Shown one piece after another: positions 5,591 to 24,961 of a DNA stretch of 64,000 nucleotides. Positions within the stretch are counted from its first letter, which is position 1; each line of letters starts with the position of its first letter. The translations under genes and the position numbers were made by a program. Below the pieces are notes generated by a model. That model was not told the DNA's origin, did not search any database, and saw nothing but the letters and a program-made list of their open reading frames with translations. Source of the stretch: Escherichia phage A4; the sequence record ON286972; one strand, 5' to 3'.

Positions 5591-6053
5591 AAAAATAAAG
5601 CAATACCCTGGATGCAAAAAGTTTTAATTAATTTGCTTGCCATCCTGGGGCGTACTATGGTACTATGATTCAGTACTGAGAAAGTGCTTTGACCTGCTAG
5701 GGTGCGGGAGTGTATCCTTTTTAAATTTTATGAATTTTGGACGGATCTTCCCACCCCCTGGGGTATCCGCTTTCTCGCGTCTATGTAGTAATTATACGCT
5801 TTTTTAGTACTGAGTCAATAGCTAAAAACAAAATAATTGAAAATAATTTAACGCGTTTAAACGGCCCGTAAAGCCCTGGATTGGTGGGAGTGGTGCAAAT
5901 GTATAGCTTAGGTGTATTAATGCGTTAGAACGCGATTGAGGCCGTTTTAATGGTATAGTACTGAATAATTGTACTCACTGGATTGATTCAGTACTGAATG
6001 ATAGTACTCCTATATAGAAAGAAAACTATTTTAAAAGTATTTGTAGAAAGTAC

Positions 6054-6081
6054 TTGCATACTATGTTTAACGGCGTATAAT
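6054..6081 (+). promoter_or_regulatory. class A early promoter
   Basis: AGTACTTGCAT -35 region and TATAAT 6076-6081, 16-bp spacer; followed by G-rich leader and ATG 6138. Confidence 0.55.
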
Positions 6082-6137
6082 GTTTTACATCGAGACGGGG
6101 GAAACGCTCCTAACTCACTTTAATAGGAATTAAAACG

Positions 6138-6500
6138 ATGGCGACTCAAATCACTAAAATCATTGCTAACCTGGTTAACTTTCGCGAAGAGATGAAAGAT
6201 CTTCCGGCTGAGACTGTAAAGATTCATATTTCAGCTTATCGGGAATTGATTGCAATGTTGCCGCTTAAGCGTGAACAATACGCCGCTACTGTGATGCTTG
6301 ATGCGATGATCCACAAGATGATTGCCAGTGATTTAACGATGGCTTATCAGTACATGGGCGAACTATTTGCGGTGTATAGTAAACCAGTGCCTGGGATGGA
6401 AAGTACCGAAGTATTGCACGGCTTAAACTTAAAACAAGATGCATGGGATAATATGCCTCGTTTCCTGGTATGGGCTGACAGTGGCAAGATTTACGAATAA
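6138..6500 (+). CDS. hypothetical protein
   Basis: 120-aa ORF downstream of promoter and purine-rich SD. Confidence 0.7.
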   Translation: MATQITKIIANLVNFREEMKDLPAETVKIHISAYRELIAMLPLKREQYAATVMLDAMIHKMIASDLTMAYQYMGELFAVYSKPVPGMESTEVLHGLNLKQDAWDNMPRFLVWADSGKIYE

Positions 6501-6514
6501 GTTTTAAAAAGTAC

Positions 6515-6573
6515 TTGCATACTAAGTTTAAAAGCGTATAATACTTTCTATCAGGTGGGGAATAGTTCCCCAC
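6515..6573 (+). promoter_or_regulatory. class A promoter plus 5'-UTR hairpin
   Basis: TTGCAT 6515-6520, TATAAT 6537-6542; hairpin GTGGGGAA-tag-TTCCCCAC 6555-6573. Confidence 0.6.
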
Positions 6574-6594
6574 TATAATTAAGAGATTAATTTT

Positions 6595-6828
6595 ATGAGT
6601 ACTATCTTAACTGTTTCTCAATCCGTTGCACTGGCTGAATTGATGGAAGCTCTGAGCCGTTGCACTGAGGTTGGCTTGTTTGATGTGGTTGACGTTGCAC
6701 CGGACGTTATTAATCATTTTTGTGATGCAATGGAAGAGTGCAAGGAAGATGATAGCCGTATGATGGCGGCCACCTTTGAGGAAGTACAGCCAGGTGAGAT
6801 CAAAGGTTTACCAGTACTGAAAAAATAG
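6595..6828 (+). CDS. hypothetical acidic protein
   Basis: 77-aa ORF after promoter, hairpin and SD (AAGAGA). Confidence 0.7.
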   Translation: MSTILTVSQSVALAELMEALSRCTEVGLFDVVDVAPDVINHFCDAMEECKEDDSRMMAATFEEVQPGEIKGLPVLKK

Positions 6829-6831
6829 TAC

Positions 6832-6892
6832 TTGCAAACTAAGTTTAAAAGCGTATAATACTTTACATCGAGGCGGGGGAATGGTTCCCCGC
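6832..6892 (+). promoter_or_regulatory. class A promoter plus 5'-UTR hairpin
   Basis: TTGCAA 6832-6837, TATAAT 6854-6859; hairpin GCGGGGGAATGGTTCCCCGC 6873-6892. Confidence 0.6.
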
Positions 6893-6914
6893 TCAATCAA
6901 ACGAGGATTTAAAA

Positions 6915-7154
6915 ATGGCTAAATCAAAAATGTTCTTAGGTCACAAAAACAAAACTCAATGGAATGTAAGCCTTTGGATTAATAACGATGAATCATTATA
7001 CCGGTTGGCCCAGGACTTTATTGCCGCTAACACTAATCGCAATGATGCGGCCCGTCATATGATGCTATTTTTAGAACAGACTGGACAAGATAAAACGCCG
7101 GACGGATTCAAGTACAGTACTACGGCGATCCGTGCGGCGATGGTTGGAATGTAA
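6915..7154 (+). CDS. hypothetical protein
   Basis: 79-aa ORF; SD GAGGA 8 nt upstream. Confidence 0.7.
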   Translation: MAKSKMFLGHKNKTQWNVSLWINNDESLYRLAQDFIAANTNRNDAARHMMLFLEQTGQDKTPDGFKYSTTAIRAAMVGM

Positions 7155-7236
7155 TAGAATAGATTTAAAGTACTATTGCACGGTGATAGTACTTTATAAT
7201 AGGATTTTATTCATACATCAACGATGGGGTAACAGC

Positions 7237-7500
7237 ATGAATATTATATACTTTGCAACGCGTGAACAAGCTCGGATCGCCGCTCGCCAGGACGGGGCAA
7301 CGTTTAAAGATATGGGCGTGCAATCGGAACGTGGTAAACGTTGGGCGGTAGTAAAGCAAAGTACAGCCAGATCCTTACAGTACTGGTTAGCGGCGTTAAA
7401 AAGTCCTGCTAGTGTATCGCGTCGAGTGGTAGAAATAAAGCACGACCGCAAGGGCAACCGTGTTACTGTGTACAGTACTAAAAAGATAGCAGTACTATAA
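7237..7500 (+). CDS. hypothetical protein, paralog of gene at 19204
   Basis: Start MNIIYFATREQARIAARQ; C-term HDRKGNRVTVYS shared with 19204..19599; ORF-track start 7132 judged an extension. Confidence 0.65.
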   Translation: MNIIYFATREQARIAARQDGATFKDMGVQSERGKRWAVVKQSTARSLQYWLAALKSPASVSRRVVEIKHDRKGNRVTVYSTKKIAVL

Positions 7501-7509
7501 AAAAAGTAC

Positions 7510-7568
7510 TTGCAAAGTAATTAGATTAATGTATAATACTTTCTATCAGGTGGGGAATACTTCCCCAC
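7510..7568 (+). promoter_or_regulatory. class A promoter plus 5'-UTR hairpin
   Basis: TTGCAA 7510-7515, TATAAT 7532-7537; hairpin GTGGGGAATACTTCCCCAC 7550-7568. Confidence 0.6.
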
Positions 7569-7589
7569 TACAATGAAGAGGATTTTAAA

Positions 7590-7820
7590 ATGGCTATTAT
7601 GTATATGACCGAAGTTAAAACCGTAAAAGATACTACCACTAATAAAACTACTTACTTACAGCGGGTATGCGGTGTATGGCAACGTATTAGTAAAGCAAAG
7701 TACTATAAATTAACTTCATATGCTAATCGTTCGGATTCATTCAGTACTGAAATAAAAGGTAATAAATTACACCAATACGGCACTTATTATTATTATAGCC
7801 TGGACGCGATTGCAGTCTAA
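7590..7820 (+). CDS. hypothetical protein
   Basis: 76-aa ORF after promoter, hairpin and SD. Confidence 0.7.
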   Translation: MAIMYMTEVKTVKDTTTNKTTYLQRVCGVWQRISKAKYYKLTSYANRSDSFSTEIKGNKLHQYGTYYYYSLDAIAV

Positions 7821-8070
7821 GCAGTTTACAAATCTTTACAATTGCCAGTATTGACTTATTTTGTCAGTACTGGCATAATGTATCTATTGAAACGAACAAT
7901 TTGGCCCACGGGGTGCGGGAGTGTATCTATAGAAAAAGTAGTTTAGTACAGTTACAATTGTGCACCCTATGGGTTAGCTGTTGTCATGGGGTATATTATA
8001 CCAGTACTGGATAGTGCTGTCAATACCTTTTTTTTACTATTCAGTACTGAAAACTATTTTTAAAAAGTAC

Positions 8071-8098
8071 TTGCAAACTATGTTTAAAGGCGTATAAT
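8071..8098 (+). promoter_or_regulatory. class A promoter (first of a tandem pair)
   Basis: TTGCAA 8071-8076, TATAAT 8093-8098; exact TTCAGTACTGAA palindrome at 8040-8051 upstream. Confidence 0.55.
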
Positions 8099-8106
8099 GT
8101 TTTACA

Positions 8107-8185
8107 TCAGGACGGGGAACGAAATAAGTAACTCCCCATTAAGTAGCCCAGGAGTAAGGCACACGAAAAACTCCCCTGATAAAAT
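8107..8185 (+). other. conserved ~80-nt structured leader / candidate small RNA (copy 1)
   Basis: caggacggggaacgaaataagtaactcccc...ctcccctgat, near-identical to 18008-18085; internal GGGGA/UCCCC and AUCAGG/CCUGAU pairings. Confidence 0.4.
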
Positions 8186-8188
8186 AGT

Positions 8189-8216
8189 TTGAAAATTGTT
8201 TTTAAAAGCGTATAAT
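8189..8216 (+). promoter_or_regulatory. second promoter of tandem pair
   Basis: TTGAAA 8189-8194, 16-bp spacer, TATAAT 8211-8216; ATG 8249 follows. Confidence 0.5.
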
Positions 8217-8248
8217 ACTTACATCAACTACTGAATGAGGGTTACAAA

Positions 8249-8860
8249 ATGAAAACTATCACTACTACTACTTTCGTTATGGATTTTTCTGAATTGAACG
8301 CAGAACAAAAAACGTCAGCTATCGAACTGGTTCGGGAACGTGAAAAAAACTCAAACGACAATTATTTTTCTGAAAGTGAAATTGAATACTATAAAGAAAC
8401 AGTACTACCGGAATATGGCATTAATGACGCTGAAATACAATTCAGTGGTTTTTGGTCCCAGGGTGACGGTGCATCAATCAGTACTGACCACGTTGACGCA
8501 GTGAAGTTTTTACGCAAGGTAAGAGCATTAACTAAGTATCGCTCAATCCGTCACCTGCTGAATGAAGATGATTTGGCGATGAGTGTAAAGCGTTCGCACT
8601 CCCACTACTCGCATGAGAATACTGTAAGCGGGTACATTGAATCGGCTTACACTGATTTAACCGCAAAACAAGAAACGTTAGTTAATGAGCTTGAGGAACT
8701 ACTCACTGAAACTATTCGTGAATTATCCCGCAAGTTGTACCGTGATTTAGAGAATGCATATGAGGATCAATTCACTACTGAAAACATTACGGCACTGATT
8801 GAGGGTAACGAATATCAATTCAATGTTATTGATGGCGTAGTAGAATCAATCGAATATTAA
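8249..8860 (+). CDS. hypothetical acidic protein
   Basis: 203-aa ORF; SD GAGGG upstream; no family recognised by eye. Confidence 0.7.
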   Translation: MKTITTTTFVMDFSELNAEQKTSAIELVREREKNSNDNYFSESEIEYYKETVLPEYGINDAEIQFSGFWSQGDGASISTDHVDAVKFLRKVRALTKYRSIRHLLNEDDLAMSVKRSHSHYSHENTVSGYIESAYTDLTAKQETLVNELEELLTETIRELSRKLYRDLENAYEDQFTTENITALIEGNEYQFNVIDGVVESIEY

Positions 8861-8872
8861 TTTAAAAAGTAC

Positions 8873-8932
8873 TTGCATTGTAGTTAGATTAACGTATAAT
8901 ACTTTACATCGAGGCGGGGAATGGTTCCCGCC
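8873..8932 (+). promoter_or_regulatory. class A promoter plus 5'-UTR hairpin
   Basis: TTGCAT 8873-8878, TATAAT 8895-8900; hairpin GGCGGGGAATGGTTCCCGCC 8913-8932. Confidence 0.6.
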
Positions 8933-8950
8933 TTTACTGAGGGTTATCTA

Positions 8951-9232
8951 ATGAGCAAAGTAATTAACTATACAGTGTTAAGCAAGTCATTGTCTATTAG
9001 CCAATGTACTGATGGTTATTGGCTTTATGATGAAACGCGTGGCATGAATTTAGCTATGCAGGAGAAAACTACTGATGCGGCATATCTTAAAGCACTGGAA
9101 TACTACCAGAAGCGTTTAAAGGAAGTAGAAAACGATTATAATAACCTGAAAGCGAAAGTAGATAATTTCGTTGGTCAATTCGTTGACGATGACGAGGGGC
9201 ACTACTGCGACCGTTGCGGATCTTACAGTTAA
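8951..9232 (+). CDS. hypothetical protein
   Basis: ATG 8951 after GAGGG SD; ORF-track start 8921 lies in the leader hairpin. Confidence 0.65.
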   Translation: MSKVINYTVLSKSLSISQCTDGYWLYDETRGMNLAMQEKTTDAAYLKALEYYQKRLKEVENDYNNLKAKVDNFVGQFVDDDEGHYCDRCGSYS

Positions 9233-9249
9233 GTACTGAGGATTATCTA

Positions 9250-9453
9250 ATGAGTGATTTAATTGAACGTATCAAAGAGCTTGAAGAAAAAGAATTGCAG
9301 TTAATCGGCTTACAGAATAAAATCTATCATGATTTGGGGAGTTTTATCAATGCTTGGGATAGTGGCGATCCTGATGCGTTACCTGCTAACCGCCAGGCGA
9401 TGATCAATGATGTGCGTAGTGTCTTTGAGTATGTTTTAAAGCAATTAAATTAA
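9250..9453 (+). CDS. hypothetical protein
   Basis: ATG 9250 with GAGGA SD 8 nt upstream; no own promoter, likely co-transcribed. Confidence 0.6.
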   Translation: MSDLIERIKELEEKELQLIGLQNKIYHDLGSFINAWDSGDPDALPANRQAMINDVRSVFEYVLKQLN

Positions 9454-9462
9454 AAAAAGTAC

Positions 9463-9490
9463 TTGCAATTAGTTTTTAGTACTGTATAAT
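9463..9490 (+). promoter_or_regulatory. class A promoter
   Basis: TTGCAA 9463-9468, AGTACTG then TATAAT 9485-9490; G-rich hairpin follows. Confidence 0.55.
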
Positions 9491-9541
9491 GGTTTACATA
9501 GAGGGGGGGAAATGGTTCTCCCTGGTAATGAGGAAAATACA

Positions 9542-9763
9542 ATGGCTAATATCACTACTCTTTCCCAACTGGAAGCACTGGTTAAATCTATGCGGGAACA
9601 TGCCGACAATATCGGCGTAAAAGATCCAGCCGTTTGCTTCTGCGACGAATTGAATGATGATACCCTGGTAATAGCAGAAGTCCAGGACGTTTCTAACTAT
9701 TCCTCGCGTTACACTGGCGGTGTAGCAAATAAAGGTGACTTCTGTTTATACCTTACAAAATAA
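9542..9763 (+). CDS. hypothetical protein
   Basis: ATG 9542 after GAGGAAAA SD. Confidence 0.65.
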   Translation: MANITTLSQLEALVKSMREHADNIGVKDPAVCFCDELNDDTLVIAEVQDVSNYSSRYTGGVANKGDFCLYLTK

Positions 9764-9766
9764 CAA

Positions 9767-9798
9767 CGCGGGGAGATAATAACTCCCCGTTACTTTTT
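9767..9798 (+). terminator. rho-independent terminator
   Basis: Stem CGGGGAG/CTCCCCG with 7-nt loop, then TTTTT. Confidence 0.6.
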
Positions 9799-9829
9799 CA
9801 GTACTGAATCATTTAATAGACGGATCTCG

Positions 9830-9885
9830 GCACCCGGTGGGTTAGTGACTGTTTCGTCTTGATGTAGTAATTATGCCAGTACTGG
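9830..9885. repeat. 56-bp dispersed repeat, copy 2
   Basis: gcacccggtgggttag...cttgatgtagtaattatgccagtactgg; weaker relatives near 5745 and 7963. Confidence 0.55.
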
Positions 9886-9931
9886 ATGCACTTGTCAACA
9901 ATTATTTTTCAAATACTTTTTATTAAAATAC

Positions 9932-9959
9932 TTGCAATTAGTTTTTAAACGCGTATAAT
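9932..9959 (+). promoter_or_regulatory. class A promoter
   Basis: TTGCAA 9932-9937, TATAAT 9954-9959; GGGGGAGCGGTTCCCC hairpin follows. Confidence 0.55.
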
Positions 9960-10006
9960 GTTTTGCATAGGGGGAGCGGTTCCCCTGGTAACTAAGGAAT
10001 AAGAAA

Positions 10007-10243
10007 ATGGTCGAACAAATCAAATCAACGTCTTCGAATGTAACGGGAACGGTAGCACACTTTACTAGTGATGAATCGCGGGGCGTTCCCTATTGTGCTG
10101 TACATGTAAACACTGAGGGTAACTACTGGTTTACGGTTTACGGATCATATTCATTTGGACGGCCAGGGCATCAAAAAATTCTGGATAAAGTACAGCCAAC
10201 GGGTAAAAATATCACTGCTGAAATGTTTTATAAAAAATCATAA
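10007..10243 (+). CDS. hypothetical protein
   Basis: 78-aa ORF; SD TAAGGAA. Confidence 0.7.
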   Translation: MVEQIKSTSSNVTGTVAHFTSDESRGVPYCAVHVNTEGNYWFTVYGSYSFGRPGHQKILDKVQPTGKNITAEMFYKKS

Positions 10244-10328
10244 AGTACTTGATAATAGTTTTTAGTACTGTATAATATTTTACATCGCAAGGGGGGAGCG
10301 GTTCCCCCTGGTAACTAAGGATAATCAA

Positions 10329-10628
10329 ATGAAAATTGCAATCATCGCCCTGGCTTTATCTGTTTCCTCTTTCGCTGTTAATGCGTCGTTAGATGTAAGT
10401 AGTGAAAAATTCATTCAGTGCACCGTAGCAATGACAGATGAAAGTACTGGCGAGATTGTTTTAAAGGATTTAGAGATCCAGCCAGAAGCATTTAAAAACG
10501 GGCCGTTCCATGAAGAAGACGAAAAAGGTAGCACGACAATTTATTACGATGCAAGTACTAAACGCGGTTCGGTCACTGTTATGGATACTGAGAAAGTAAC
10601 TCATACTGGCGTTATTAATTGCCGTTGA
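10329..10628 (+). CDS. small secreted/periplasmic protein (predicted signal peptide)
   Basis: N-term MKIAIIALALSVSSFAVNA has positive-hydrophobic-AxA signal-peptide shape. Confidence 0.65.
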   Translation: MKIAIIALALSVSSFAVNASLDVSSEKFIQCTVAMTDESTGEIVLKDLEIQPEAFKNGPFHEEDEKGSTTIYYDASTKRGSVTVMDTEKVTHTGVINCR

Positions 10629-10649
10629 TAGATACTACGGGGTAACATC

Positions 10650-10880
10650 ATGACTAAGCGAATTGTTTTACTTAACGAAAGCAGTACTACACAACTACTT
10701 AACGCCGTGCATTATGATATTGAAACGAGCGTTAATCTTATCAGTACTGTAGTACTGTTGGACACTGGAAAGGTCGCCAATGATAAAGCGATTGCAGGTA
10801 TACTAACGGATCTTGAGCCTGGTAGCAGTGCACCAATAACGTTAAATGGTAAAGTGTTTAACATTTTACTTACTGATTAA
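10650..10880 (+). CDS. hypothetical protein
   Basis: 76-aa ORF 20 nt after previous stop. Confidence 0.6.
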   Translation: MTKRIVLLNESSTTQLLNAVHYDIETSVNLISTVVLLDTGKVANDKAIAGILTDLEPGSSAPITLNGKVFNILLTD

Positions 10881-10886
10881 GTACAT

Positions 10887-10909
10887 AGCCCACCTGGTGG
10901 GCTTTTTTG
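10887..10909 (+). terminator. rho-independent terminator
   Basis: Stem AGCCCAC/GTGGGCT, loop CTG, then TTTTTT. Confidence 0.7.
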
Positions 10910-10962
10910 TTTTTGTAGTATCGTAGTACTGAGATACTTTGAAAATAGTTTTAAAAAAGTAG

Positions 10963-10990
10963 TTGACATTACCGCAGAAAAGCGTAGAAT
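10963..10990 (+). promoter_or_regulatory. sigma70-like promoter
   Basis: TTGACA 10963-10968, 16-bp spacer, TAGAAT 10985-10990. Confidence 0.5.
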
Positions 10991-11113
10991 GTATTACATC
11001 AAGACGGGGAGCACTAAGTAGACCGCCAGTAAGTCGAACGAAAAACTGGACACGTCGAGAAAACTTTGATACACTAATAAACGTAAACTAAACTTTAATT
11101 GAGGATTTATAAA

Positions 11114-11596
11114 ATGGCTAATGTAAAATCATTCATCAAAGCACTGGTAGCAAATGAAACTAACGTAGCGGCAGAGATCCTGGCTGAACTGGATAACGAT
11201 ACCATGAAAGCGGTACGCAATAATTTTAACATCGCTTACAGTACTGCGAAAGAACTACAAGCAAATAAAGCGGCGGCACTTGAAGCTGAGAAGGCAGCAC
11301 GCGAAGCAGAATTGCAGAAAACGATTGAAGATATTAACGCCGCCGTCGCTGGGCTTGATCTGGAAGTAGTTACCGAAATGGCACGTAAAGCCCTGGCAGC
11401 GAAATACGGGGAAGACAAGCCAGAAGTAAAAGCTAAAAAATGGATTCAAGAACGTGTGACGGTTGTACTGGATAATGGCGAGGAATACACTGTACCAGTA
11501 CGCGGTAACTGCATTGCCGTAGTACTGGATGCTATCAAAGAAAGCGGTTTGACCCGTGAGGAATGGATCGAAGCTCATCGCAAAGTTGAAGCATAA
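11114..11596 (+). CDS. hypothetical Ala-rich protein
   Basis: ATG 11114 after GAGGA SD; 160 aa. Confidence 0.7.
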   Translation: MANVKSFIKALVANETNVAAEILAELDNDTMKAVRNNFNIAYSTAKELQANKAAALEAEKAAREAELQKTIEDINAAVAGLDLEVVTEMARKALAAKYGEDKPEVKAKKWIQERVTVVLDNGEEYTVPVRGNCIAVVLDAIKESGLTREEWIEAHRKVEA

Positions 11597-11617
11597 CAAT
11601 TAAAGTACTGAATCACT

Positions 11618-17505: not shown

Positions 17506-17506
17506 A

Positions 17507-19108: not shown

Positions 19109-19130
19109 TAGAATCCATTTAAAGTACTAT

Positions 19131-19159
19131 TTGACATTGCCCAGATAGTACTTTATAAT
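19131..19159 (+). promoter_or_regulatory. class B promoter
   Basis: AGTACTAT-TTGACA 19131-19136, 17 bp, TATAAT 19154-19159; the paralogous site near 7176 has a 13-bp spacer. Confidence 0.5.
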
Positions 19160-19203
19160 AGACTCTCGCTTGTAGTACTAACTTAACTAATAGGATGTAT
19201 ACC

Positions 19204-19599
19204 ATGATTACTAAATTCTACGCTACCCGTGAAGCTGCCCGTATTGTTGCACGCGAGGAAGGAGCAGCATTTAAAGACATGGGCACGACCGCACCGAAAG
19301 GTCAACGCTGGGCCGTACAGTTCAAAGAAATCTCTGATATTGTGAATTCACCTGAGCCAGTACTGACAGCAGCAGAACAGAAGAAAGCTGATGAACTGTC
19401 AGCAGTACTTAACGCTCAAGATGAATTTATCGCTGGTTCTGATATTAAAGTACAGGTAAATTCGAATGCATGGACTCACGCGGATCACCTGGCTAACCTG
19501 AAGCGTCCAAGTGAACTGATTCGCAACAAACGAGAGATCCGTCATGACCGCAAGGGAAACCGTGTTACCGTATACAGTAAACGCCGCCAGGTTATCTAA
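19204..19599 (+). CDS. hypothetical protein, paralog of gene at 7237
   Basis: MITKFYATREAARIVAREEGAAFKDMG...HDRKGNRVTVYS. Confidence 0.65.
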   Translation: MITKFYATREAARIVAREEGAAFKDMGTTAPKGQRWAVQFKEISDIVNSPEPVLTAAEQKKADELSAVLNAQDEFIAGSDIKVQVNSNAWTHADHLANLKRPSELIRNKREIRHDRKGNRVTVYSKRRQVI

Positions 19600-19621
19600 T
19601 AACTTGCAGTACTAACAACAC

Positions 19622-19646
19622 GGCGGGATCAGTTCCCGCCTTTTTT
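19622..19646 (+). terminator. rho-independent terminator
   Basis: Stem GGCGGGA/TCCCGCC, loop TCAGT, then TTTTTT. Confidence 0.7.
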
Positions 19647-19661
19647 ATAGGATAAACTAAA

Positions 19662-19916
19662 ATGATTAAGGTACAACTATCTAAAGATAATATCTTGCGG
19701 GTACACTATAAAGCCCCACAGAGAATCATCACAAAGGCCGTACAGCTTGCTAATGAGTTTATTAATGGTAATCTATTACCGAGGAAGTTAAGCAACGGAA
19801 AACTGCGTGTAATCGACGTGGACACCAACAACAGAATAGTAATCGAGAATACCGGAAAGATAAACCTATATGAACACCAACAATATAATAAGAAAATAAA
19901 ACTAATATCACGTTGA
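19662..19916 (+). CDS. hypothetical protein
   Basis: 84-aa ORF; SD TAGGA. Confidence 0.65.
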   Translation: MIKVQLSKDNILRVHYKAPQRIITKAVQLANEFINGNLLPRKLSNGKLRVIDVDTNNRIVIENTGKINLYEHQQYNKKIKLISR

Positions 19917-19970
19917 CAGTACTCAAATGTTTTAGTACTATGTATCTATACCAACACGGGGAGTAACAAA

Positions 19971-20189
19971 ATGAATTTATCTAAAGTCGAAAAGAAAACT
20001 ATTGATGTAGCTATCCAACATGGTTACACCTTTCGTAATGATTCACATTTTACCAATTTTCAACAAGGCCAACGAACTATTAAAAAACTAATTGACAAAG
20101 GTTTATTAGTTAAAGTAGATAACGGTAACGGCGTGGAGTATCAGCCAACACAAGACGCATTATCTTTAAAGAAATATGCAATTATCTAA
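19971..20189 (+). CDS. hypothetical protein
   Basis: 72-aa ORF; TTGACAGTACT promoter element and SD GGGGAG upstream. Confidence 0.65.
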   Translation: MNLSKVEKKTIDVAIQHGYTFRNDSHFTNFQQGQRTIKKLIDKGLLVKVDNGNGVEYQPTQDALSLKKYAII

Positions 20190-20254
20190 TTGACAGTACT
20201 CAAATGTTTTAGTACTATATGTACATACCAACACGGAATAACTGGAGAAACAAA

Positions 20255-20482
20255 ATGATTAATATCTTAGAACGCATCAAAGAAACTACTACGCTGGTGG
20301 ATCTACTCAATGTACTGACTTTTAAAGTAACTCGGTTTAGTACTCCTGAATTTATCAACCTCATTGATAGTAAAGGTGAATACCGCATCACTATTGAAAA
20401 TGGTCGTGCTAATGTATTCAGTACTAAATCAGGTAAAACCGCAATTCATTCAGTAATTGCAAATAAAACTGTTGCAATCTAA
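20255..20482 (+). CDS. hypothetical protein
   Basis: ATG 20255 after TGGAGAAA SD; upstream region duplicates that of 19971. Confidence 0.6.
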   Translation: MINILERIKETTTLVDLLNVLTFKVTRFSTPEFINLIDSKGEYRITIENGRANVFSTKSGKTAIHSVIANKTVAI

Positions 20483-20551
20483 TTAGTACTAACATATAAT
20501 AGTCACATCAAGGCAGGGAATACCTCCCTGCTATCTTAAAGAGTAAATGCA

Positions 20552-21136
20552 ATGCGTAATTATACTAAATTCATCCGTACACTGGGAGAAATGGAAACTA
20601 ACAAAGAGATCCTTACAGCTTGTCGGTTGGCTGGTCTGGAGATCATCGGGGCCGGATCATCCCGTATCGTATTCGCTTTAAATGATCGGTTAGTGATTAA
20701 GGTCGCTAATTGTGACGCTGGCGTAGAACAAAATGAAACAGAATGTAAGGTATGGAATTTTTTAGATTATGACCGCCCTCACCTTAAACAGTACTTTGCA
20801 AAGGTGCATATGCATTTATGCGATCCTGATAATATGTTTATCGTTATGGATCGGTTGAGTACTGCAAGTAAAGGCAGTGTAAAGCACGTAAACGCGTGCA
20901 ATGAATTAAAGTACAATATTAAACGTAATGCCATTGAACGCCAGCACCGCTTTGCTGATGCACTACAACACGTTGATGATACATTATCAACACTAACGAT
21001 AAGAGATATCAGAAAACAGAATATCGGCCAGGATCGTAATGGCCTTATTAAAGTACTTGATTACGGTTTAACCCGCAATATCTGGAATCAGTACTATAAA
21101 AAGCGTGATGTAGAAGCAAGTAAGGTAACACGATAA
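20552..21136 (+). CDS. putative protein kinase-like protein (minimal kinase fold)
   Basis: IGAGSSRIVF (Gly loop), VIKV (Lys), DIRKQN (catalytic-loop-like), DYG (DFG-like) in kinase order. Confidence 0.45.
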   Translation: MRNYTKFIRTLGEMETNKEILTACRLAGLEIIGAGSSRIVFALNDRLVIKVANCDAGVEQNETECKVWNFLDYDRPHLKQYFAKVHMHLCDPDNMFIVMDRLSTASKGSVKHVNACNELKYNIKRNAIERQHRFADALQHVDDTLSTLTIRDIRKQNIGQDRNGLIKVLDYGLTRNIWNQYYKKRDVEASKVTR

Positions 21137-21145
21137 AAAAGATTA

Positions 21146-21231
21146 AAAAAGGGATTGACTCCGGTCAGTCCCTTTGCTATTATATATTCATTGAGAGATA
21201 ACTCACTGACCCATAGGGTGCGGAAGTGTAT
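21146..21231 (+). repeat. composite hairpin/promoter/conserved-box module, copy 3
   Basis: Hairpin GGGATTGACTCCGGTCAGTCCC 21151-21172, TATTAT, box CCCATAGGGTGCGGAAGTGTATC. Confidence 0.55.
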
Positions 21232-21359
21232 CTATTATATAAGTATTCAGTACTGAAAACTATTTGATAAAAAGTACTTGCATTGTACTTAGAATCAAGT
21301 ATAATGTTTTATATCGAGAGGGGGAAATGGTTCTCCCTGGTACATTAAGGAATAAAATC

Positions 21360-21581
21360 ATGACTACAATGACTTGCATTCACGCTTCAAACCTGCTTAA
21401 TGATGCGGCCTTTAATGTTGATTCAGAATATCAATGTTATCGGGATGAAAATAAAAAAGTTTTTGTAGTTGATAATAATGGTTTCCATATTGAATTACAA
21501 TCCGGTTTCACTGGTGTTGATGGTAAATCAGTGTGGGGCGTACAGGATGATAAAGGCACATATCATTTTAAACGTAATTAA
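21360..21581 (+). CDS. hypothetical protein
   Basis: ATG 21360 after TAAGGAATAAA; class A promoter and hairpin upstream. Confidence 0.65.
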   Translation: MTTMTCIHASNLLNDAAFNVDSEYQCYRDENKKVFVVDNNGFHIELQSGFTGVDGKSVWGVQDDKGTYHFKRN

Positions 21582-21667
21582 GTATTGACAAAGTATATCA
21601 TCAGTACTGTATAATAGTTTACATCAAGGGGAGAATAGTTCTCCCCAATACAATAAGGAATAAAATC

Positions 21668-22075
21668 ATGTCTACTACTACTAATCTCGCTCGGAACATC
21701 ACTAACGATAAAAATCATGCTGCAATGGTTGTAGCTTACATTGAAGCTATGCAATTCAGTACTGTACATAATGATAACGGCGATTACCTGGAAGATTATG
21801 AGTTATCTGATGAAGCACGTCAAGCGGCGGTGATTGCATGTTCTCGCTTCATTGAGAAACACGGTAATGATCTGGAAGTAGTTCGCGGTATGTTTATTGA
21901 TTACGGTTATGAGCAAGCTGGTCATGATCTGTTCCTTACCCGCGAAGGTCACGGAACTGGTTTTTGGGATCGTGGTTTAGGTCACTATGGCGATGTATTC
22001 ACGAAGTACTGCGAAGAAATCAACGTTTGCGATCCCTATGTAGGCGATGATAACTTAATCTATATGGGCGAATAA
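21668..22075 (+). CDS. hypothetical protein
   Basis: 135-aa ORF; promoter and GGGGAGAATAGTTCTCCCC hairpin upstream. Confidence 0.7.
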   Translation: MSTTTNLARNITNDKNHAAMVVAYIEAMQFSTVHNDNGDYLEDYELSDEARQAAVIACSRFIEKHGNDLEVVRGMFIDYGYEQAGHDLFLTREGHGTGFWDRGLGHYGDVFTKYCEEINVCDPYVGDDNLIYMGE

Positions 22076-22164
22076 AAGTATTTGACAAAGTATATCAGTA
22101 CTGTATAATAGTTTACATCAAGGGGAGAATAGTTCTCCCCACACCAATAAAAGGAAACAAAATT

Positions 22165-22437
22165 ATGTCCAGCTACTCCGCTACTATGATCATTAAAGAT
22201 ATGAACGGTAATCCTACTTCTGCTGGTGGATCATTTGGAAACATTAATTTAGATGGTCGGTTATCCATGCAATCAGCCATCGATGCAGCGAAAGAAGTTT
22301 TTAAGAATGAATGTACTGTTAGTAAGCTGGATTATATGGGATTCGCTATCGAGAAAACTAATCGTTTTGTGAACTACAAAAATCCACTGATGATTGATAC
22401 TAACCTGAAAGCTAACGAAGTGGGGTACTTATTATGA
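22165..22437 (+). CDS. hypothetical protein
   Basis: 90-aa ORF; SD AAAGGAAA. Confidence 0.7.
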   Translation: MSSYSATMIIKDMNGNPTSAGGSFGNINLDGRLSMQSAIDAAKEVFKNECTVSKLDYMGFAIEKTNRFVNYKNPLMIDTNLKANEVGYLL

Positions 22438-22625
22438 CAGTAGAAGAAGTTAAAAAAGTACTGGCAGTACTACGCTATCATAATCATTGCAAGGTGAAGA
22501 ATGATCCTGATTATGTTGATTCATCCCTGGAGGAAGACACATTAAACGCAATAAGCCATATGCAAACATTAGCAAAGCGTATGACCGAAAAGAATAGACC
22601 GGACTATATCGGAAATAAAATTTAA
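22434..22625 (+). CDS. hypothetical protein
   Basis: ATGA overlap with upstream gene; 63 aa. Confidence 0.6.
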   Translation: MTVEEVKKVLAVLRYHNHCKVKNDPDYVDSSLEEDTLNAISHMQTLAKRMTEKNRPDYIGNKI

Positions 22626-22711
22626 AAAGTACTTGCATTGTAGTTAGATTAACGTATAATGTTTTACATAGAGCGGGGGAATAGTTCTCCCGCCAGTCCA
22701 GGAGATACACC

Positions 22712-22975
22712 ATGAACACTATCGAAATCACTATCAATGCACACGTATACGACAACGTAGCACTGCAAACTACTATGACCGCTAATGATACCAGTACTTT
22801 GCGGAATACTGTTATTAGTGCCGTATGTGCTGCAATCGGTGATGTCGCCCTGGAAAATGCAAAACACGTAAACGATGGTTTCACTATGTGCAAACGTGAT
22901 AACGCAAAACATATCATCGTGGAAGGTTACGGCGGTGTAGAATTTAATGTTTATATGAAAAAAGTACTTGCATAA
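22712..22975 (+). CDS. hypothetical protein
   Basis: 87-aa ORF; promoter and GCGGGGGAATAGTTCTCCCGC hairpin upstream. Confidence 0.7.
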   Translation: MNTIEITINAHVYDNVALQTTMTANDTSTLRNTVISAVCAAIGDVALENAKHVNDGFTMCKRDNAKHIIVEGYGGVEFNVYMKKVLA

Positions 22976-23042
22976 TAACTAAAACAAAGTATAATGTTTT
23001 GCATAGGGGGAGATATCCTCCCCCACTAAAAGGAGTAATAAA

Positions 23043-23267
23043 ATGGCTAACTTTGATGAACTGATGCGGGAAGTAGCTAACCTGGCAGAAGAGAAGAAAT
23101 CATTCGATTCTATCTATAACACCGCTCACCGTGATTCAGTACTGGCATGTAACCAGGATCAAAAAGATGAACTAATCGCCACCTATCATGAAGCATGGAA
23201 GTACTACCGACAATGGGAGAAAGAAGAAAGAGAGTCTACCATTGACGGCCTCAATAATCTAATCTAA
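23043..23267 (+). CDS. hypothetical protein
   Basis: 74-aa ORF; hairpin GGGGGAGATATCCTCCCCC upstream. Confidence 0.7.
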   Translation: MANFDELMREVANLAEEKKSFDSIYNTAHRDSVLACNQDQKDELIATYHEAWKYYRQWEKEERESTIDGLNNLI

Positions 23268-23343
23268 AAGTTTTATTTCAGTACTATTGACATAGCTTGA
23301 TAGTACTGATGTAATAACTTTACTAACTACAAGGGGAAACATA

Positions 23344-23601
23344 ATGGATCAATTCACACAATATCGGGTAAATCCTCAAGCTATGGCCTACGTAGAAGAC
23401 CATAAAACGTTACCAGTACTGCAACCAGTTAAAGGCCATATCTATCGTGCAATGTCGTGGAGTGCGGCCCAGGATGGCTATAAAACCGTAGCCGTGGGTA
23501 TGTATTGCGGTAATGGTGAATGGTTTGATCCAAATAATCCGGTAGCCATTGACAGTACTGAAAAAATGAAATGGGCCGACTACATCGAAGATATTTCATA
23601 A
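23344..23601 (+). CDS. hypothetical protein
   Basis: 85-aa ORF; class B-type promoter at 23287-23315. Confidence 0.65.
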   Translation: MDQFTQYRVNPQAMAYVEDHKTLPVLQPVKGHIYRAMSWSAAQDGYKTVAVGMYCGNGEWFDPNNPVAIDSTEKMKWADYIEDIS

Positions 23602-23691
23602 AAACTATTTGACAGTACTACAAGATAATGTATAATGTTTTACATAGAGCGGGGGAATAGTTCTCCCGCCAATAGTTTGGAGTTAAACATT

Positions 23692-23892
23692 ATGTCTATC
23701 GCTATCGCCCTGGTTGAAGTACTGAAAGAAGCTAAAGCCAACCTTATCGATGTACAGATTAAGGAATTGCAAAACGGCTTAATCGGCTGTACTTGTACCG
23801 CTGGTGGAGCGGCAGACTATCGAGAACACGAATCACTCGAATCACTGGTTCGGTATCTTACCATGATCGTTGATGATTGGAGAATCATCTAA
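23692..23892 (+). CDS. hypothetical protein
   Basis: ATG 23692 after TGGAG SD. Confidence 0.6.
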   Translation: MSIAIALVEVLKEAKANLIDVQIKELQNGLIGCTCTAGGAADYREHESLESLVRYLTMIVDDWRII

Positions 23893-23904
23893 CAAAAAAG
23901 AATA

Positions 23905-23986
23905 AAAAAGGGATTGACTCCGGTCAGTCCCTTTGCTATTATATACGCATAGACAAAAACTAGCCCACAGGGTGCATAGGTGTATC
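23905..23986 (+). repeat. composite hairpin/promoter/conserved-box module, copy 4
   Basis: Hairpin GGGATTGACTCCGGTCAGTCCC 23910-23931, TATTAT, box AGCCCACAGGGTGCATAGGTGTATC. Confidence 0.55.
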
Positions 23987-24137
23987 CAAAATATATAGTT
24001 AATAACGGTGAGTAACTATCTGCTGGTGGGGTGAAAACTATTAATAAAAAAAGTATTGACAAAGTATATCAGTACTGCAATAATGTATCTCGTAGGGCGG
24101 CAATGGTGCGACGGCCCACAAAGTTAGGAGATTCAAA

Positions 24138-24470
24138 ATGACTACTTCAATCGCTATCGTTAAAGCTTTCATCCGTACTAATGTTTCCTCTGTATTCATC
24201 GACGGCCTCGACCGTAACGTAGAATACTCAATCATTATCGCACAAACGGCAAACGGTTCTCGGTACATCCTGAATGATAGTGAAGCAAATCACTACTACT
24301 TCACTAAAGCCACTGGCTTTAAACGCATCGATGCTGATGTAGTATACGCTAAGATGAATAAGCTGGTAGATAAGATTAACGCTAAAGGTACTATAGATTT
24401 ACAGTACTGGACCGAAACCGATCCAGAATATGGATCTCACCGCTACCTGAATCCAGGTGTTAAAATGTAA
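24138..24470 (+). CDS. hypothetical protein
   Basis: 110-aa ORF; SD TAGGAGA. Confidence 0.7.
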   Translation: MTTSIAIVKAFIRTNVSSVFIDGLDRNVEYSIIIAQTANGSRYILNDSEANHYYFTKATGFKRIDADVVYAKMNKLVDKINAKGTIDLQYWTETDPEYGSHRYLNPGVKM

Positions 24471-24559
24471 AAAGTACTTGCATAGTACTTAGATTCAAGT
24501 ATAATGTTTTTCATAGAGAGGGGGAAATGGTTCTCCCTCCTAAATTAAGGAGTTTTATC

Positions 24560-24961
24560 ATGACCTTCTCAATCACTTCCTTCGCTGACGTTTTAGTACT
24601 GGCTCGGACTTTTGGTAAAGATGCACTGGAGTACGCTGTAAGTAATGGCACTATCCAACCGGAACAGTGCCGCATCATTGGAAACTGCAAACGTTGGGCG
24701 GTATCCAATACTATTGCACTGGAAAACTTCAACGATGGTAACAATGAGTATTCAGTTGATGCAGTATTCGAAGCCGTTGATCTTGGCGGTATCTATAACA
24801 CTAACCTAAATGATGTGCGTATCGTTCGCACGGGGTTCGGTGCTTATGATGTATCTATCCGTGAAGCTATGAACACCGGATACATTAGTAAGGACTTACT
24901 TGCTCACATCATGCAGCTATGGACGGAACGTAACGAAGCACGCACTATCTTAGGGCTGTAA
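24560..24961 (+). CDS. hypothetical protein
   Basis: ATG 24560 after TAAGGAG. Confidence 0.65.
   Translation: MTFSITSFADVLVLARTFGKDALEYAVSNGTIQPEQCRIIGNCKRWAVSNTIALENFNDGNNEYSVDAVFEAVDLGGIYNTNLNDVRIVRTGFGAYDVSIREAMNTGYISKDLLAHIMQLWTERNEARTILGL

Follow-up and report, generated by a model that had tools for sequence, protein, structure and literature searches.

An array of PeSL-like promoter–hairpin cassettes in the terminal repeat of a jumbo coliphage

Promoter-early stem-loop (PeSL) cassettes are known from the T4-type phages RB49/phi1, PST/T4 and nt-1/KVP40 (Arbiol et al. 2010, PMC2839356; Comeau et al. 2014, PMC4122927). The cassette array of phage A4 described here is a real and moderately new feature, and a relative of those cassettes. 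Neither the PeSL precedent (PMC2839356, PMC4122927) nor the swapping of genes at cassettes figured in the preliminary description of this DNA.

The window, that is the whole 64-kb stretch analysed, comes from an Asteriusvirus jumbo coliphage of the 121Q/PBECO4/fEgEco12 group, and Asteriusvirus genomes match it at 88-95% identity. The ~21 kb direct terminal repeat of the phage corresponds to window positions ~4414-25390: fEgEco12 54-20865 aligns to window 4467-25263, and the fEgEco12 terminal repeat measures 20,993 bp (PMC13070987). In fEgEco12, the cassette organisation ends where the terminal repeat ends. The array region holds ~53 small genes in a row; the promoter–hairpin–Shine-Dalgarno–gene cassette noticed earlier is real, but it does not precede "most" early genes, since cassettes stand before only about half of them.

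We found 26 standard cassettes, all on the + strand and all built as AAAAAGTAC-TTGCAA/TTGACA-N16-TATAAT, 12±2 nt, a G-run/C-run hairpin of 7-10 bp, ~20 nt and ATG, with a few variant cassettes in addition. The standard cassettes are:

6515-6597, +, cassette: -35 at 6515, hairpin 6554-6574 (GGTGGGGAA-TAG-TTCCCCACT), ATG 6595
6832-6917, +, cassette: -35 at 6832, hairpin 6872-6893, ATG 6915
7510-7592, +, cassette: -35 at 7510, hairpin 7549-7569, ATG 7590
8873-8953, +, cassette: -35 at 8873, hairpin 8911-8934, ATG 8951
9463-9544, +, cassette: -35 at 9463, hairpin 9504-9523 (internal G·U), ATG 9542
9932-10009, +, cassette: -35 at 9932, hairpin 9968-9987, ATG 10007
10249-10331, +, cassette: -35 at 10249, hairpin 10291-10309, ATG 10329
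12331-12411, +, cassette: -35 at 12331, hairpin 12371-12390 (GGGGAGAA-ATGA-TTCTCCCC), ATG 12409
14056-14140, +, cassette: -35 at 14056, hairpin 14099-14118, ATG 14138
14288-14372, +, cassette: -35 at 14288, hairpin 14330-14346 (GCGGGAA-CTA-TTCCCGC), ATG 14370
14616-14696, +, cassette: -35 at 14616, hairpin 14656-14675 (G·U), ATG 14694
15393-15475, +, cassette: -35 at 15393, hairpin 15434-15452, ATG 15473
15829-15919, +, cassette: -35 at 15829, hairpin 15874-15893 (GGGAAGTA-CCAG-TACTTCCC, atypical stem), ATG 15917
16764-16843, +, cassette: -35 at 16764, hairpin 16804-16822, ATG 16841
17038-17118, +, cassette: -35 at 17038, hairpin 17078-17097, ATG 17116
17337-17418, +, cassette: -35 at 17337, hairpin 17377-17395, ATG 17416 (29-aa ORF)
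18430-18516, +, cassette: -35 at 18430, hairpin 18473-18488, ATG 18514
18700-18787, +, cassette: -35 at 18700, hairpin 18742-18761, ATG 18785
20472-20554, +, cassette: -35 at 20472, hairpin 20512-20532 (GGCAGGGA-ATACC-TCCCTGCT), ATG 20552
21278-21362, +, cassette: -35 at 21278, hairpin 21319-21338 (G·U), ATG 21360
21585-21670, +, cassette with 19-nt spacer: -35 at 21585, -10 at 21610, hairpin 21628-21646, ATG 21668
22082-22167, +, cassette: -35 at 22082, hairpin 22122-22140, ATG 22165
22633-22714, +, cassette: -35 at 22633, hairpin 22673-22693 (GCGGGGGAA-TAG-TTCTCCCGC), ATG 22712
22968-23045, +, cassette: -35 at 22968, hairpin 23006-23024 (GGGGGAG-ATATC-CTCCCCC), ATG 23043
23609-23694, +, cassette: -35 at 23609, hairpin 23649-23669, ATG 23692
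24478-24562, +, last cassette in the array: -35 at 24478, hairpin 24518-24539, ATG 24560

A scan for strict sigma70-like sites on the + strand between 5990 and 24600 returned 52 sites, 25 of which have a leader hairpin (at least 6 bp, at least 4 G-C pairs, starting 8-17 nt past the -10); random positions in the same region gave a mean of 0.98 such hairpins and a maximum of 5 in 200 trials, and no hairpin of this kind accompanies any of the 73 promoter-like sites on the - strand or in the rest of the window. A covariance model trained on 12 copies matched the window 29 times, on the + strand only (4823-24542), so that the earlier figure of about 30 copies is right if variants are counted; the four example hairpins given with it were found in place (6554-6574, 6872-6893, 7549-7569 and 8911-8934). 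The model detected the cassette at 21585-21670, which the promoter scan overlooked owing to its 19-nt spacer, and gave no match at E<=0.01 for the cassette at 20472-20554. The hairpin follows the -10 by 12.4±1.8 nt and precedes the ATG by a median of 20 nt (range 16-25); because it always starts 12±2 nt past the -10, it is part of the 5'UTR. These data show that the array exists and that its geometry is fixed.

In our reading, each cassette serves a single small early gene autonomously. Its 5' portion comprises an A-rich/AGTAC upstream element, near-consensus sigma70 -35 and -10 elements and a conserved start region, ACAUnnAG; the hairpin of 7-10 bp, whose 5' arm has a G run at its base and whose 3' arm has a C run there, starts ~5 nt from the predicted 5' end and is followed by ~10 unstructured nt, the Shine-Dalgarno sequence and the ATG.

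Four further elements depart from this plan:

6054-6140, +, first cassette, degenerate hairpin: weak covariance-model match 6076-6112
8071-8251, +, long-loop variant: promoter, GGGGAAC, loop of 13-15 nt, CTCCCC (model match 8093-8141), ~50 nt, second promoter 8189, ATG 8249
17975-18153, +, second long-loop variant, built as 8071-8251: model match 17997-18043, second promoter 18091, ATG 18151
5383-5413, +, orphan three-arm element: TTCCCC..GTGGGGA..TTTCCCCGC, located in non-coding DNA at the left end of the terminal repeat

The hairpin of the first cassette is stronger in 121Q (GACGGGGGAAACGCTCCCGTT) and full in fEgEco12 (AGCGGGAA-CAC-TTCCCGCT). The orphan element had been described as a copy without a gene at about 5380-5405; it is indeed a real G4A/TC4 hairpin-like element, kept in five relatives, but it has no promoter upstream and no covariance-model match. 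The array also contains a second promoter class, ~10 more promoters with an extended -10 (TGnCATAAT) and no hairpin; the two leaders of this class that we folded were unstructured (dG 0). The motif AGTACT occurs at two fixed positions within promoters.

Our analysis shows that selection preserves the structure of the hairpin on the sense strand and not its sequence. Across 105 distinct copies, 98.2% of cells are paired vs 87.0% in shuffles, and both-side changes occupy 85 cells vs 22.8±5, a value attained in 0 of 500 shuffles, although common descent and gene conversion link the copies, so that such counts overstate the independent events. The covariation score is 0.311 vs 0.138 in shuffles and at most 0.108 with partners slid, in an alignment fitted to the covariance model's own structure; an independent RNAalifold run retained five pairs, each with compensatory changes. 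Compensatory changes occur in five of the eight stem pairs. Pair 27-53 is GC in 52 copies, AU in 23, GU in 23 and CG in 1, with 0 non-pairs and never A·C; pairs 29-51 and 30-50 are almost exclusively A-U or G·U; and unique hairpins hold 18 G·U pairs vs 5 A·C mismatches, the latter mostly in the outermost stem extension. About one-fifth of distinct copies are imperfect palindromes of the kind that RNA tolerates.

Orthologues in related phages point the same way. The arms diverge by 0.095-0.129 per site and the loop by 0.216, vs 0.044 for coding sequence and 0.006-0.017 for the -10 and -35; of 50 variant segments, 48 nevertheless fold with dG <= -8, and the mean dG of the variants is -12.7 vs -8.3 after an equal number of random mutations. 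The fEgEco12 orthologue of hairpin 22673-22693, GAGGGGGAA-ATGG-TTTCCCCTC, carries a compensatory C-G to A-U change, and orthologues of the cassette at 15829-15919 have GGGGAGAA-type stems in place of its atypical one. The loop, of 3-7 nt and many sequences, is the cassette's most variable part, contrary to the fixed AA(T)NGTT loop first reported. Polarity is never inverted: the G run forms the 5' arm in every phage examined. The preliminary description had offered an RNA hairpin among its readings and had named a stem free of compensatory changes as part of what would count against it; such changes are present, and with the G·U-but-not-A·C pattern they bear the RNA reading out, or at least establish a sense-strand structure. 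We conclude that the element is very probably a sense-strand RNA hairpin.

As to its role, we tentatively propose 5' protection of mRNA. Presumably transcribed from its own promoter, with a start site deduced from promoter geometry, the hairpin would cap the RNA structurally near its 5' end and slow 5'-end-dependent decay (RppH/RNase E), shielding both primary transcripts and fragments cut from read-through RNA. RNase E cleavage is over ten times faster when the 5'-monophosphate end of an RNA is accessible than when the end is base-paired (PMC3997798, a review whose reference list includes work on the 5'-terminal stem-loop stabilisers of ompA and papA). The predicted start, 6-8 nt past the -10, leaves some 4-7 nt unpaired ahead of the hairpin. 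Stabilising hairpins reportedly have to lie no more than a few nt from the 5' end (Belasco laboratory), and protection may therefore be partial. The roughly ten promoters of the same array that lack a hairpin count against the proposal. The idea of an "insulator" finds no support, because the hairpin left ribosome-binding-site accessibility unchanged in folding calculations.

The function originally claimed for PeSLs, that of an attenuator or 3'-end element for upstream transcription, we consider unlikely for A4. The hairpin would then act on read-through RNA of the preceding cassette, stopping or slowing polymerase or blocking 3' exonucleases after processing, and would keep transcription from ~26 tandem strong promoters from piling up. 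An RB49/phi1 stem-loop placed between promoter and lacZ lowered expression about as much as rrnB T1 (Arbiol et al., PMC2839356), a result that fits effects on mRNA or translation equally well. The RB49 hairpins contain sense-strand G·T pairs even though they precede the start site of their own promoter, which suggests a role exerted on read-through RNA and not at the 5' end; in the window, the hairpins lie a median of 47 nt past the upstream stop codon, and just ~nine terminators serve the ~53 genes of the array region. However, the A4 hairpins lie within the cassette's own transcript, where efficient termination would silence the gene served; they lack a U tract (mean T content of 1.9 in the 8 nt past the stem); and the phage has canonical terminators and terminator/-35 composites elsewhere in the array region, where they are needed. 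The missing U tract and the separate canonical terminators rule out an intrinsic terminator, and none of the leader hairpins was flagged as terminator-like.

It is improbable that the hairpin is instead a site for a phage or host RNA-binding factor that controls all early genes jointly, by shut-off, selective translation or processing. The same element does occupy a fixed position in ~26 co-expressed leaders, with constant polarity and, in most copies, a stem whose base carries the G run and whose top pairs are A-U. However, the high variability of the loop (0.216 substitutions per site) weakly disfavours a specific binder; unlike stems (GGCGGCA/TGCCGCC, GGCGGTGG/CCCACCGCC and GGGAAGTA/TACTTCCC) fill the same slot; an unrelated phage family that uses the cassette would also need the factor; and we identified no candidate protein. 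Even less probable is a hairpin without a function of its own, a passenger of a promoter module propagated through duplication and gene conversion: the cassettes are clearly paralogous and exchanged as blocks, and some array promoters lack the hairpin, but the hairpin outlasts replacement of its sequence even between phage families, its pairing is far above shuffled and slid controls, and substitutions avoid the A·C state.

Genome comparisons show that the cassettes are breakpoints of gene insertion, loss and replacement, both between related phages and between phage families. Against fEgEco12, 11 of 17 synteny block ends fall inside cassettes, which make up 28% of the sequence (p=0.0015), and single-gene indels have a cassette at each boundary; the gene of the cassette at 14288-14372, for instance, is an insertion with cassettes on both flanks. 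The gene of the cassette at 7510-7592 is 96% identical to its counterpart in Justusliebigvirus JLBYU50, whereas the cassette is ~55% identical, with a different stem in the same place. The conserved promoter-plus-hairpin block may serve as a portable homology patch for gene shuffling. For the overall picture, in which PeSL-type cassettes are packed into the ~21 kb terminal repeat, the hairpin shields the 5' end and the block is a homology patch, our confidence is about even.

The least probable reading has the palindrome acting as DNA, as the operator of a dimeric repressor or the target of a recombination protein or cruciform-cutting enzyme: GGGGAA/TTCCCC is palindromic, cassettes are clusters of synteny breakpoints, and Arbiol et al. 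speculated on such a role for GGGG...CCCC (PMC2839356), but plain homologous recombination between ~80 bp repeats explains the breakpoints equally well. The operator suggested in the preliminary description is rejected because the half-sites are too variable: they differ among copies and phages (GGGGAA, GCGGGAA, GGGAGAA, GGCGGCA, GGCGGTGG) and covary, which a single DNA-binding protein could not tolerate, ~1/5 of copies are imperfect palindromes, and the arms diverge faster than neighbouring genes. Moreover, a G·T-but-not-A·C asymmetry is meaningless in duplex DNA or a two-armed cruciform, at 7-10 bp the stems are short for extrusion as cruciforms, and the promoter AGTACT is a better operator candidate.

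Several known systems share parts of this design. Like the ompA and papA stabilisers, the A4 element is a short G/C-clamped hairpin near the mRNA 5' end, followed by an unstructured ribosome-binding site; those stabilisers lie at or a few nt from +1 and have a measured effect on half-life, whereas the A4 start is predicted. The T7 class III/gene 10 leader also forms a 5' stabiliser hairpin, beginning GGGAGA...UUUCCC. In T5, small host-takeover pre-early genes lie in a long direct terminal repeat (first-step-transfer DNA) and are the first to enter the cell; by analogy, strong host-type promoters would drive small genes within a long direct terminal repeat in both phages. To our knowledge, the T5 pre-early region has no stereotyped leader hairpin and no sequence relationship to the Asteriusvirus array. 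The morons of lambdoid phages (Hendrix), discussed in PMC2839356, are likewise single accessory genes with their own promoter, insertable as a unit, but each brings its own terminator and lacks a conserved repeat at its flanks; morons are scattered and not arrayed, and are thought to move by illegitimate recombination.

The closest likeness is to PeSLs. Both have a near-consensus sigma70 promoter with an A/T-rich stretch upstream, an adjoining G-run–loop–C-run stem-loop with G·T pairs, and a 3' end formed by the Shine-Dalgarno sequence and ATG of a small ORFan; both occur in dozens of copies, which cluster where the genome is most plastic; and in both, indels and replacements between close relatives end in cassettes, the breaks resembling PeSL modular shuffling. 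There are differences: the RB49 PeSLs that we read from the genome have the same G-run/C-run hairpins, G·T pairs included, but carry them inside the promoter (over the hexamers or in the gap between them), ahead of its start site, and have unstructured leaders, whereas the A4 hairpin lies in the 5'UTR; the published terminator role does not fit A4, because the U tract is lacking; the carriers here are Rak2-like jumbo phages and Stephanstirmvirinae, not Straboviridae; and the A4-type array fills a direct terminal repeat. No similarity to the RB49 cassettes was detected at the nucleotide level, and no Krischvirus was among the matches listed. Other PeSL positional classes are present as well, with a stem over the -35 at 15073, 17839, 21148 and 23907 in the window and a stem over the -10 in the relative fENko-Kae01. 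We are therefore confident that the cassettes of phage A4 are PeSL-like.

The early region of the window is built from a repeated cassette, in which a promoter is followed by a leader hairpin with a G run in its 5′ arm and a C run in its 3′ arm, and then by the SD and ATG of one small gene. A strict scan of the plus strand at 5990-24600 (a −35 of TTGACA or TTGCAA and a −10 of TATAAT, each with one mismatch at most, and a spacer of 16-18 nt) found 52 sigma70-like sites. A hairpin of at least six pairs, at least four of them G-C, starting 8-17 nt past the −10 element stands behind 25 of these 52, compared with a mean of 0.98 at random positions in the same region, and behind 0 of 73 promoter-like sites on the other strand or elsewhere in the window. 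A covariance model built from 12 copies matched the window 29 times, on the plus strand in every case; among these matches are two long-loop variants and, at 21585-21670, one cassette whose spacer measures 19 nt. The preliminary description had counted about 30 repeats, in agreement with the model, and its example hairpins are right to within 1-2 nt; it had also placed the hairpin cassette before most early genes, a share that falls to about half given that the region holds ~53 genes.

The geometry of the cassette is rigid: the hairpin begins 12.4±1.8 nt past the −10 element, the ATG follows at a median of 20 nt, and the upstream stop codon precedes the hairpin by a median of 47 nt. The cassette shares the promoter, the stem-loop and the intergenic setting, before a small gene of unknown function in a hyperplastic region, of promoter-early stem-loop (PeSL) cassettes, the closest known kind: TTGCAA/TTGACA-N16-TATAAT with an upstream A/T-rich element, AAAAAGTAC; stems of 7-10 bp with a 5′ arm G run and a 3′ arm C run; and 26 copies, plus variants, in intergenic positions before the ~53 small genes at 6-25 kb, with the SD and start codon at the 3′ end. 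Predicted stem energies are −11 to −16 kcal/mol; leaders folded one by one reach −12 to −16 kcal/mol, and their z-scores relative to dinucleotide-shuffled sequence are −1.6 to −4.4.

The segment 6000-12000 matches 164 phage records by megablast, the top ones being the Asteriusvirus phages ECO103 4-12-1, WPEC5, 121Q, PBECO4 and fEgEco12 at 88-95% identity, and the region of the array is a mosaic between relatives. Positions 54-20865 of fEgEco12 align with 4467-25263 of the window, and the direct terminal repeat of fEgEco12 measures 20,993 bp, as confirmed by PhageTerm and restriction digests (PMC13070987). Genes in that repeat are spaced by ~85 bp, a spacing that ceases at the repeat end; beyond it, genes overlap and have no individual promoters. 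As cassette-type spacing ends with the repeat, the array is a terminal-repeat gene array, at ~4414-25390 in the window. The elements discussed below are as follows.

Elements within and around the cassette array
4414-6050: non-coding left end of the terminal repeat
5383-5413: orphan three-arm G4/C4 element in that left end
12572, 12866, 16149, 16428, 12033, 8189, 18091, 23287: extended −10 promoters, interspersed with the hairpin class
8071-8190, 10963-11113, 17975-18090: long structured leaders
9768, 10887, 11618, 16650, 19622: ordinary terminators flagged by a consensus scan
15073-15108, 17839-17874, 21148-21183, 23907-23942, also 52547-52590: composite terminator-plus-promoter elements
8921, 9512, 12379, 14664, 17086, 21327, 24527: ATGs in hairpin loops
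After 7851, 15080, 17846, 21155, 23914 (plus strand) and after 5818, 8023, 9898 (minus strand): promoter-linked repeat of ~40-60 nt
6595-6826 and 14370-14612: one-gene indels relative to fEgEco12, each bounded by two cassettes

The extended −10 promoters form a second early class without a hairpin (TTGACA, a 17-nt spacer and TGnCATAAT), with the flank ATCACAGTACTATTGACA in many copies; their leaders are very short (28-44 nt from −10 to ATG) and unstructured, with a dG of 0 in both leaders folded. Each of the long structured leaders runs for ~100-120 nt after an early promoter of the standard kind. Two of the three open with the hairpin in its long-loop form and close at a second promoter, and all three are candidates for non-coding RNAs or for leaders under regulation. 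About eight copies of the promoter-linked repeat, ...tagcccacNgggtgc(a/g)nnagtgtatc..., occur on both strands behind a promoter with no ORF after them; the repeat has no Rfam match and is a candidate small-RNA family. Besides the orphan, the left end of the terminal repeat contains tandem CTAGACGG/CTGGATGG-like repeats at ~5200-5350, many CAGTACTG sites and divergent promoter-like sites, and the GC skew changes sign near 4400.

Because GGGGAA..TTCCCC is identical on both strands, strand polarity cannot separate an RNA structure from a DNA site, and we used the balance of G·U against A·C instead. The covariance model was run against the window together with nine loci from relatives (four Asteriusvirus genomes, fEgEco12, fENko-Kae01, Hallingskeid, fHe-Yen9-03 and JLBYU50), the best 150 of 179 matches were aligned, and 105 distinct sequences were analysed. 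Standard pairs fill 98.2% of the cells, compared with 87.0% when the 3′ partners were shuffled and 60-82% when they were slid; five of eight pairs have changes on both sides; and 85 cells carry double changes versus 22.8±5 after shuffling, with 0 of 500 shuffles reaching 85, counts to be read with the caveat that the alignment was fitted to the model and that its cells are not independent events, because the copies are related and exchanged by recombination. One mid-stem pair is G-C 52 times, A-U 23 times, G·U 23 times, C-G once and never a non-pair; A·C, expected equally often under a neutral or duplex-DNA process, is absent there. With a strand-symmetric hairpin definition, 50 unique hairpins contain 18 G·U and 5 A·C, the latter mostly in the outermost stem extension, and an independent RNAalifold run on the alignment kept five pairs, with compensatory changes in all. 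The compensatory stem changes and the G·U-over-A·C pattern support the RNA-hairpin reading of the preliminary description.

Orthologous cassettes were paired across five Asteriusvirus genomes on two anchors, the promoter and the gene's first ~60 nt. The −35 and −10 elements are the most conserved columns of the cassette, and the sequence of the hairpin evolves faster than the gene downstream.

Changes per site in orthologous cassettes
−10 element: 0.006
−35 element: 0.017
Coding sequence: 0.044
Hairpin arms: 0.095-0.129
Loop: 0.216

An entire hairpin is often swapped for another family member, as at 15874, where GGGAAGTA-CCAG-TACTTCCC stands against GGGGAGAA-type stems in all relatives. Since such replacements differ in length, column-wise comparison gave many false “broken” pairs, and refolding of each orthologue was used instead. 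Variant segments with 1-18 differences fold to −8 kcal/mol or lower in 48 of 50 distinct cases, with a mean of −12.7 versus −8.3 after an equal number of random substitutions. This pattern of divergence with folding agrees with selection for structure, and not with a sequence-specific operator or a loop-reading protein.

The analysis thus shows an array of fixed geometry, selection for pairing on the sense strand, a lack of terminator features, and an association of cassettes with recombination breakpoints. The role that we find best-fitting is that of a 5′-proximal cap against 5′-end-dependent decay. With a start predicted from sigma70 geometry at 6-8 nt past the −10 element, the hairpin would lie about 5 nt from the 5′ end and would slow decay that begins there; it would also shield downstream fragments cut from the A/U-rich, promoter-derived RNA of read-through transcripts. 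RNase E cuts RNA more than ten times as fast when the 5′ monophosphate is accessible as when the end is base-paired, and work on 5′-terminal stem-loop stabilisers is cited in the same review (PMC3997798). Such stabilisers lie at or a few nt from the 5′ end, whereas the geometry in the window, counted from the predicted start, puts 4-7 unpaired nt first, which may be too many for full protection.

Among the rivals of the cap, attenuation or 3′ protection of upstream transcripts ranks first. One reporter experiment on PeSL was interpreted as terminator activity (PMC2839356), and the sequence of the hairpins in the window argues against a terminator or attenuator role: in 113 distinct leaders, a mean of 1.9 and a maximum of 4 of the 8 nt that follow the stem are T, so that an intrinsic (Rho-independent) terminator is rejected for want of a U tract, and the leader hairpins are absent from the terminator-like elements found by the consensus scan. 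Moreover, as the hairpin falls within the predicted transcript of its own cassette, efficient termination at that point would switch off the gene behind it. In the composite elements (AAAGGGATTGACTCCGGTCAGTCCCTTTGCTATTAT), of which the same scan flagged the four at 15073, 17839, 21148 and 23907, the terminator-like stem includes the −35 hexamer.

The next rival makes the hairpin a binding site for a regulator. It is conceivable, but in our judgement quite improbable, that the hairpin defines a regulon, in which a dedicated factor of the phage or the host recognises the G-clamped stem in some 30 pre-early leaders and silences or favours these mRNAs jointly, or that the abundant hairpin RNAs sponge a host RNA-binding or RNA-degrading component in takeover; if true, this would be the first 5′UTR “address label” of a whole phage temporal class, exchanged between families with the genes. 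Antiterminator hairpins of the boxB/nut type have a conserved loop sequence and one site per operon; here the loop is the most variable part and each gene has its own hairpin, and this candidate was rejected.

A DNA-level target, third in order, draws on the palindromic look of the stem, which the preliminary description had offered as an operator for a dimeric repressor; that proposal is not supported, as the half-sites vary and covary, and G·T at one position in 23 of 105 distinct copies breaks the symmetry. N4-type (virion RNA polymerase) promoters form a hairpin on the template strand upstream of the start site; this type was also rejected, given that the wobbles occur in the non-template (sense) strand and would be A·C mismatches on the template. 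The AGTACT palindrome (often CAGTACTG) is a better operator candidate than the leader hairpin. It occurs 140 times in 4414-25390 versus 6.8 expected (about 20-fold), 35 times in 1-4413 versus 1.4 and 98 times in 25391-64000 versus 13. In early promoters it takes two fixed places about 20 bp apart (14051-14056 and 14072-14077, for example): AGTAC runs into the −35 element (AGTAC/TTGCAA) in 18 of 52 promoters, and AGTACT directly precedes the −10 element (AGTACTG/TATAAT) in 20 of 52. It is common within genes too, and may be a protein-binding, modification or nicking signal. The last rival, mere hitch-hiking of the hairpin with the cassette, sits poorly with stems that keep pairing while their sequence changes.

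Several narrower ideas were also dropped. Predicted accessibility of the ribosome-binding site (RBS) on the cassette's own transcript is 0.64 with the hairpin and 0.62/0.64 with it deleted or scrambled, and on read-through RNA 0.585 with the hairpin versus 0.57; as accessibility is thus unchanged, the hairpin is not retained as an RBS insulator. Many loops contain an ATG (AAATGG or AAATGA) right after the SD-like G-rich arm. These ATGs are in frame and open in 7 of 10 cases in the window and in frame in 19 of 42 distinct leaders (p=0.07), and were rejected as true starts; they mislead gene callers, and at least one deposited annotation, that of fEgEco12 g08, starts at such a loop ATG. By inspection, the E. 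coli type I-E CRISPR repeat, with its C arm first, has the reverse arm order of the cassettes and the orphan, and a mimic of it (an RNA anti-CRISPR), considered for both, was set aside. Rfam gave no relevant match in 4000-26000 at E≤1.

Cassettes are also where gene order breaks. Alignment of the window with fEgEco12 gives collinear blocks with 17 internal ends. Of these ends, 11 fall within cassettes, whose intervals cover 28% of the region (p=0.0015), and a further two fall 1-5 nt outside cassettes; ends of indels and replacements in cassettes are the modular shuffling of the PeSL type. At the one-gene indels, a single fEgEco12 cassette aligns to both flanking cassettes, the signature of recombination between repeats. 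JLBYU50 (Justusliebigvirus), an unrelated myovirus of 141 kb, has the same cassette type, with stems that include GGCGGGAA/TTCCCGCC, GGCGGCA/TGCCGCC and GGCGGTGG/CCCACCGCC. The gene at 7590-7820 and its counterpart at JLBYU50 5763-5993 are 96% identical over the first 70 nt; the cassette upstream is ~55% identical and carries another hairpin in the same place, with homology from the ATG onward. A further product is shared between 6138-6500 and JLBYU50 3482-3844 (61% protein identity). These shared genes show that early genes have been exchanged between unrelated E. coli myoviruses; genes cross phage families while the cassettes before them get exchanged.

PeSL cassettes were described in 2010 in the T4-type phages RB49 and phi1, as a sigma70 promoter of consensus type that carries an A/T-rich stretch upstream, in about 50 copies in hyperplastic regions, with five positional classes of stem-loop, all around or before the start site, and with evidence of recombination between cassettes in which genes are inserted, deleted or replaced and mini-circles are formed (PMC2839356); they were later extended to PST/T4 and nt-1/KVP40 (PMC4122927). 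Literature searches on Asteriusvirus, 121Q, PBECO4 and RaK2 (hairpins, promoters, transcriptomes) turned up neither an account of the element nor any mapped start, and none of the papers in the collection searched mentions PeSLs or hairpins in leaders for Asteriusvirus or its Rak2-like kin. A scan of IMG/VR for the strict promoter-plus-hairpin pattern gave multiple matches only on the 121Q contig, the 28 others being singletons, and a protein-based search of viral contigs returned essentially 121Q alone.

The stem-loop position differs from that of PeSL. Read directly, the RB49 genome has hairpins between or over the promoter hexamers, with G·T pairs and unstructured leaders, and such hairpins cannot act as a 5′ cap; in the window, the stem-loop begins beyond the predicted start, about 25 nt further downstream, in the 5′UTR. 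Other PeSL positional classes coexist in this phage group: stems lie over the −35 element in the window, fHe-Yen9-03 and Hallingskeid, and over the −10 element in fENko-Kae01. The PeSL class with the stem-loop over the −35 element dominates the Yersinia phage fHe-Yen9-03, and the composite elements of the window match it.

In conclusion, the cassettes are the same kind of object as PeSL and not a new kind of system; the novelty lies in the fixed 5′UTR position, in the host lineages and in how strong the structural evidence is. The ~100 distinct natural copies provide direct evidence of selection on sense-strand structure, which bears on the debate over whether the PeSL stem-loop is an mRNA element, a terminator or a signal for recombination. 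As strong, compact expression units that are complete in themselves, the cassettes have practical use, and PeSL-type mobile regulatory cassettes now reach from the classical T4-type phages to jumbo Rak2-like phages and Stephanstirmvirinae.
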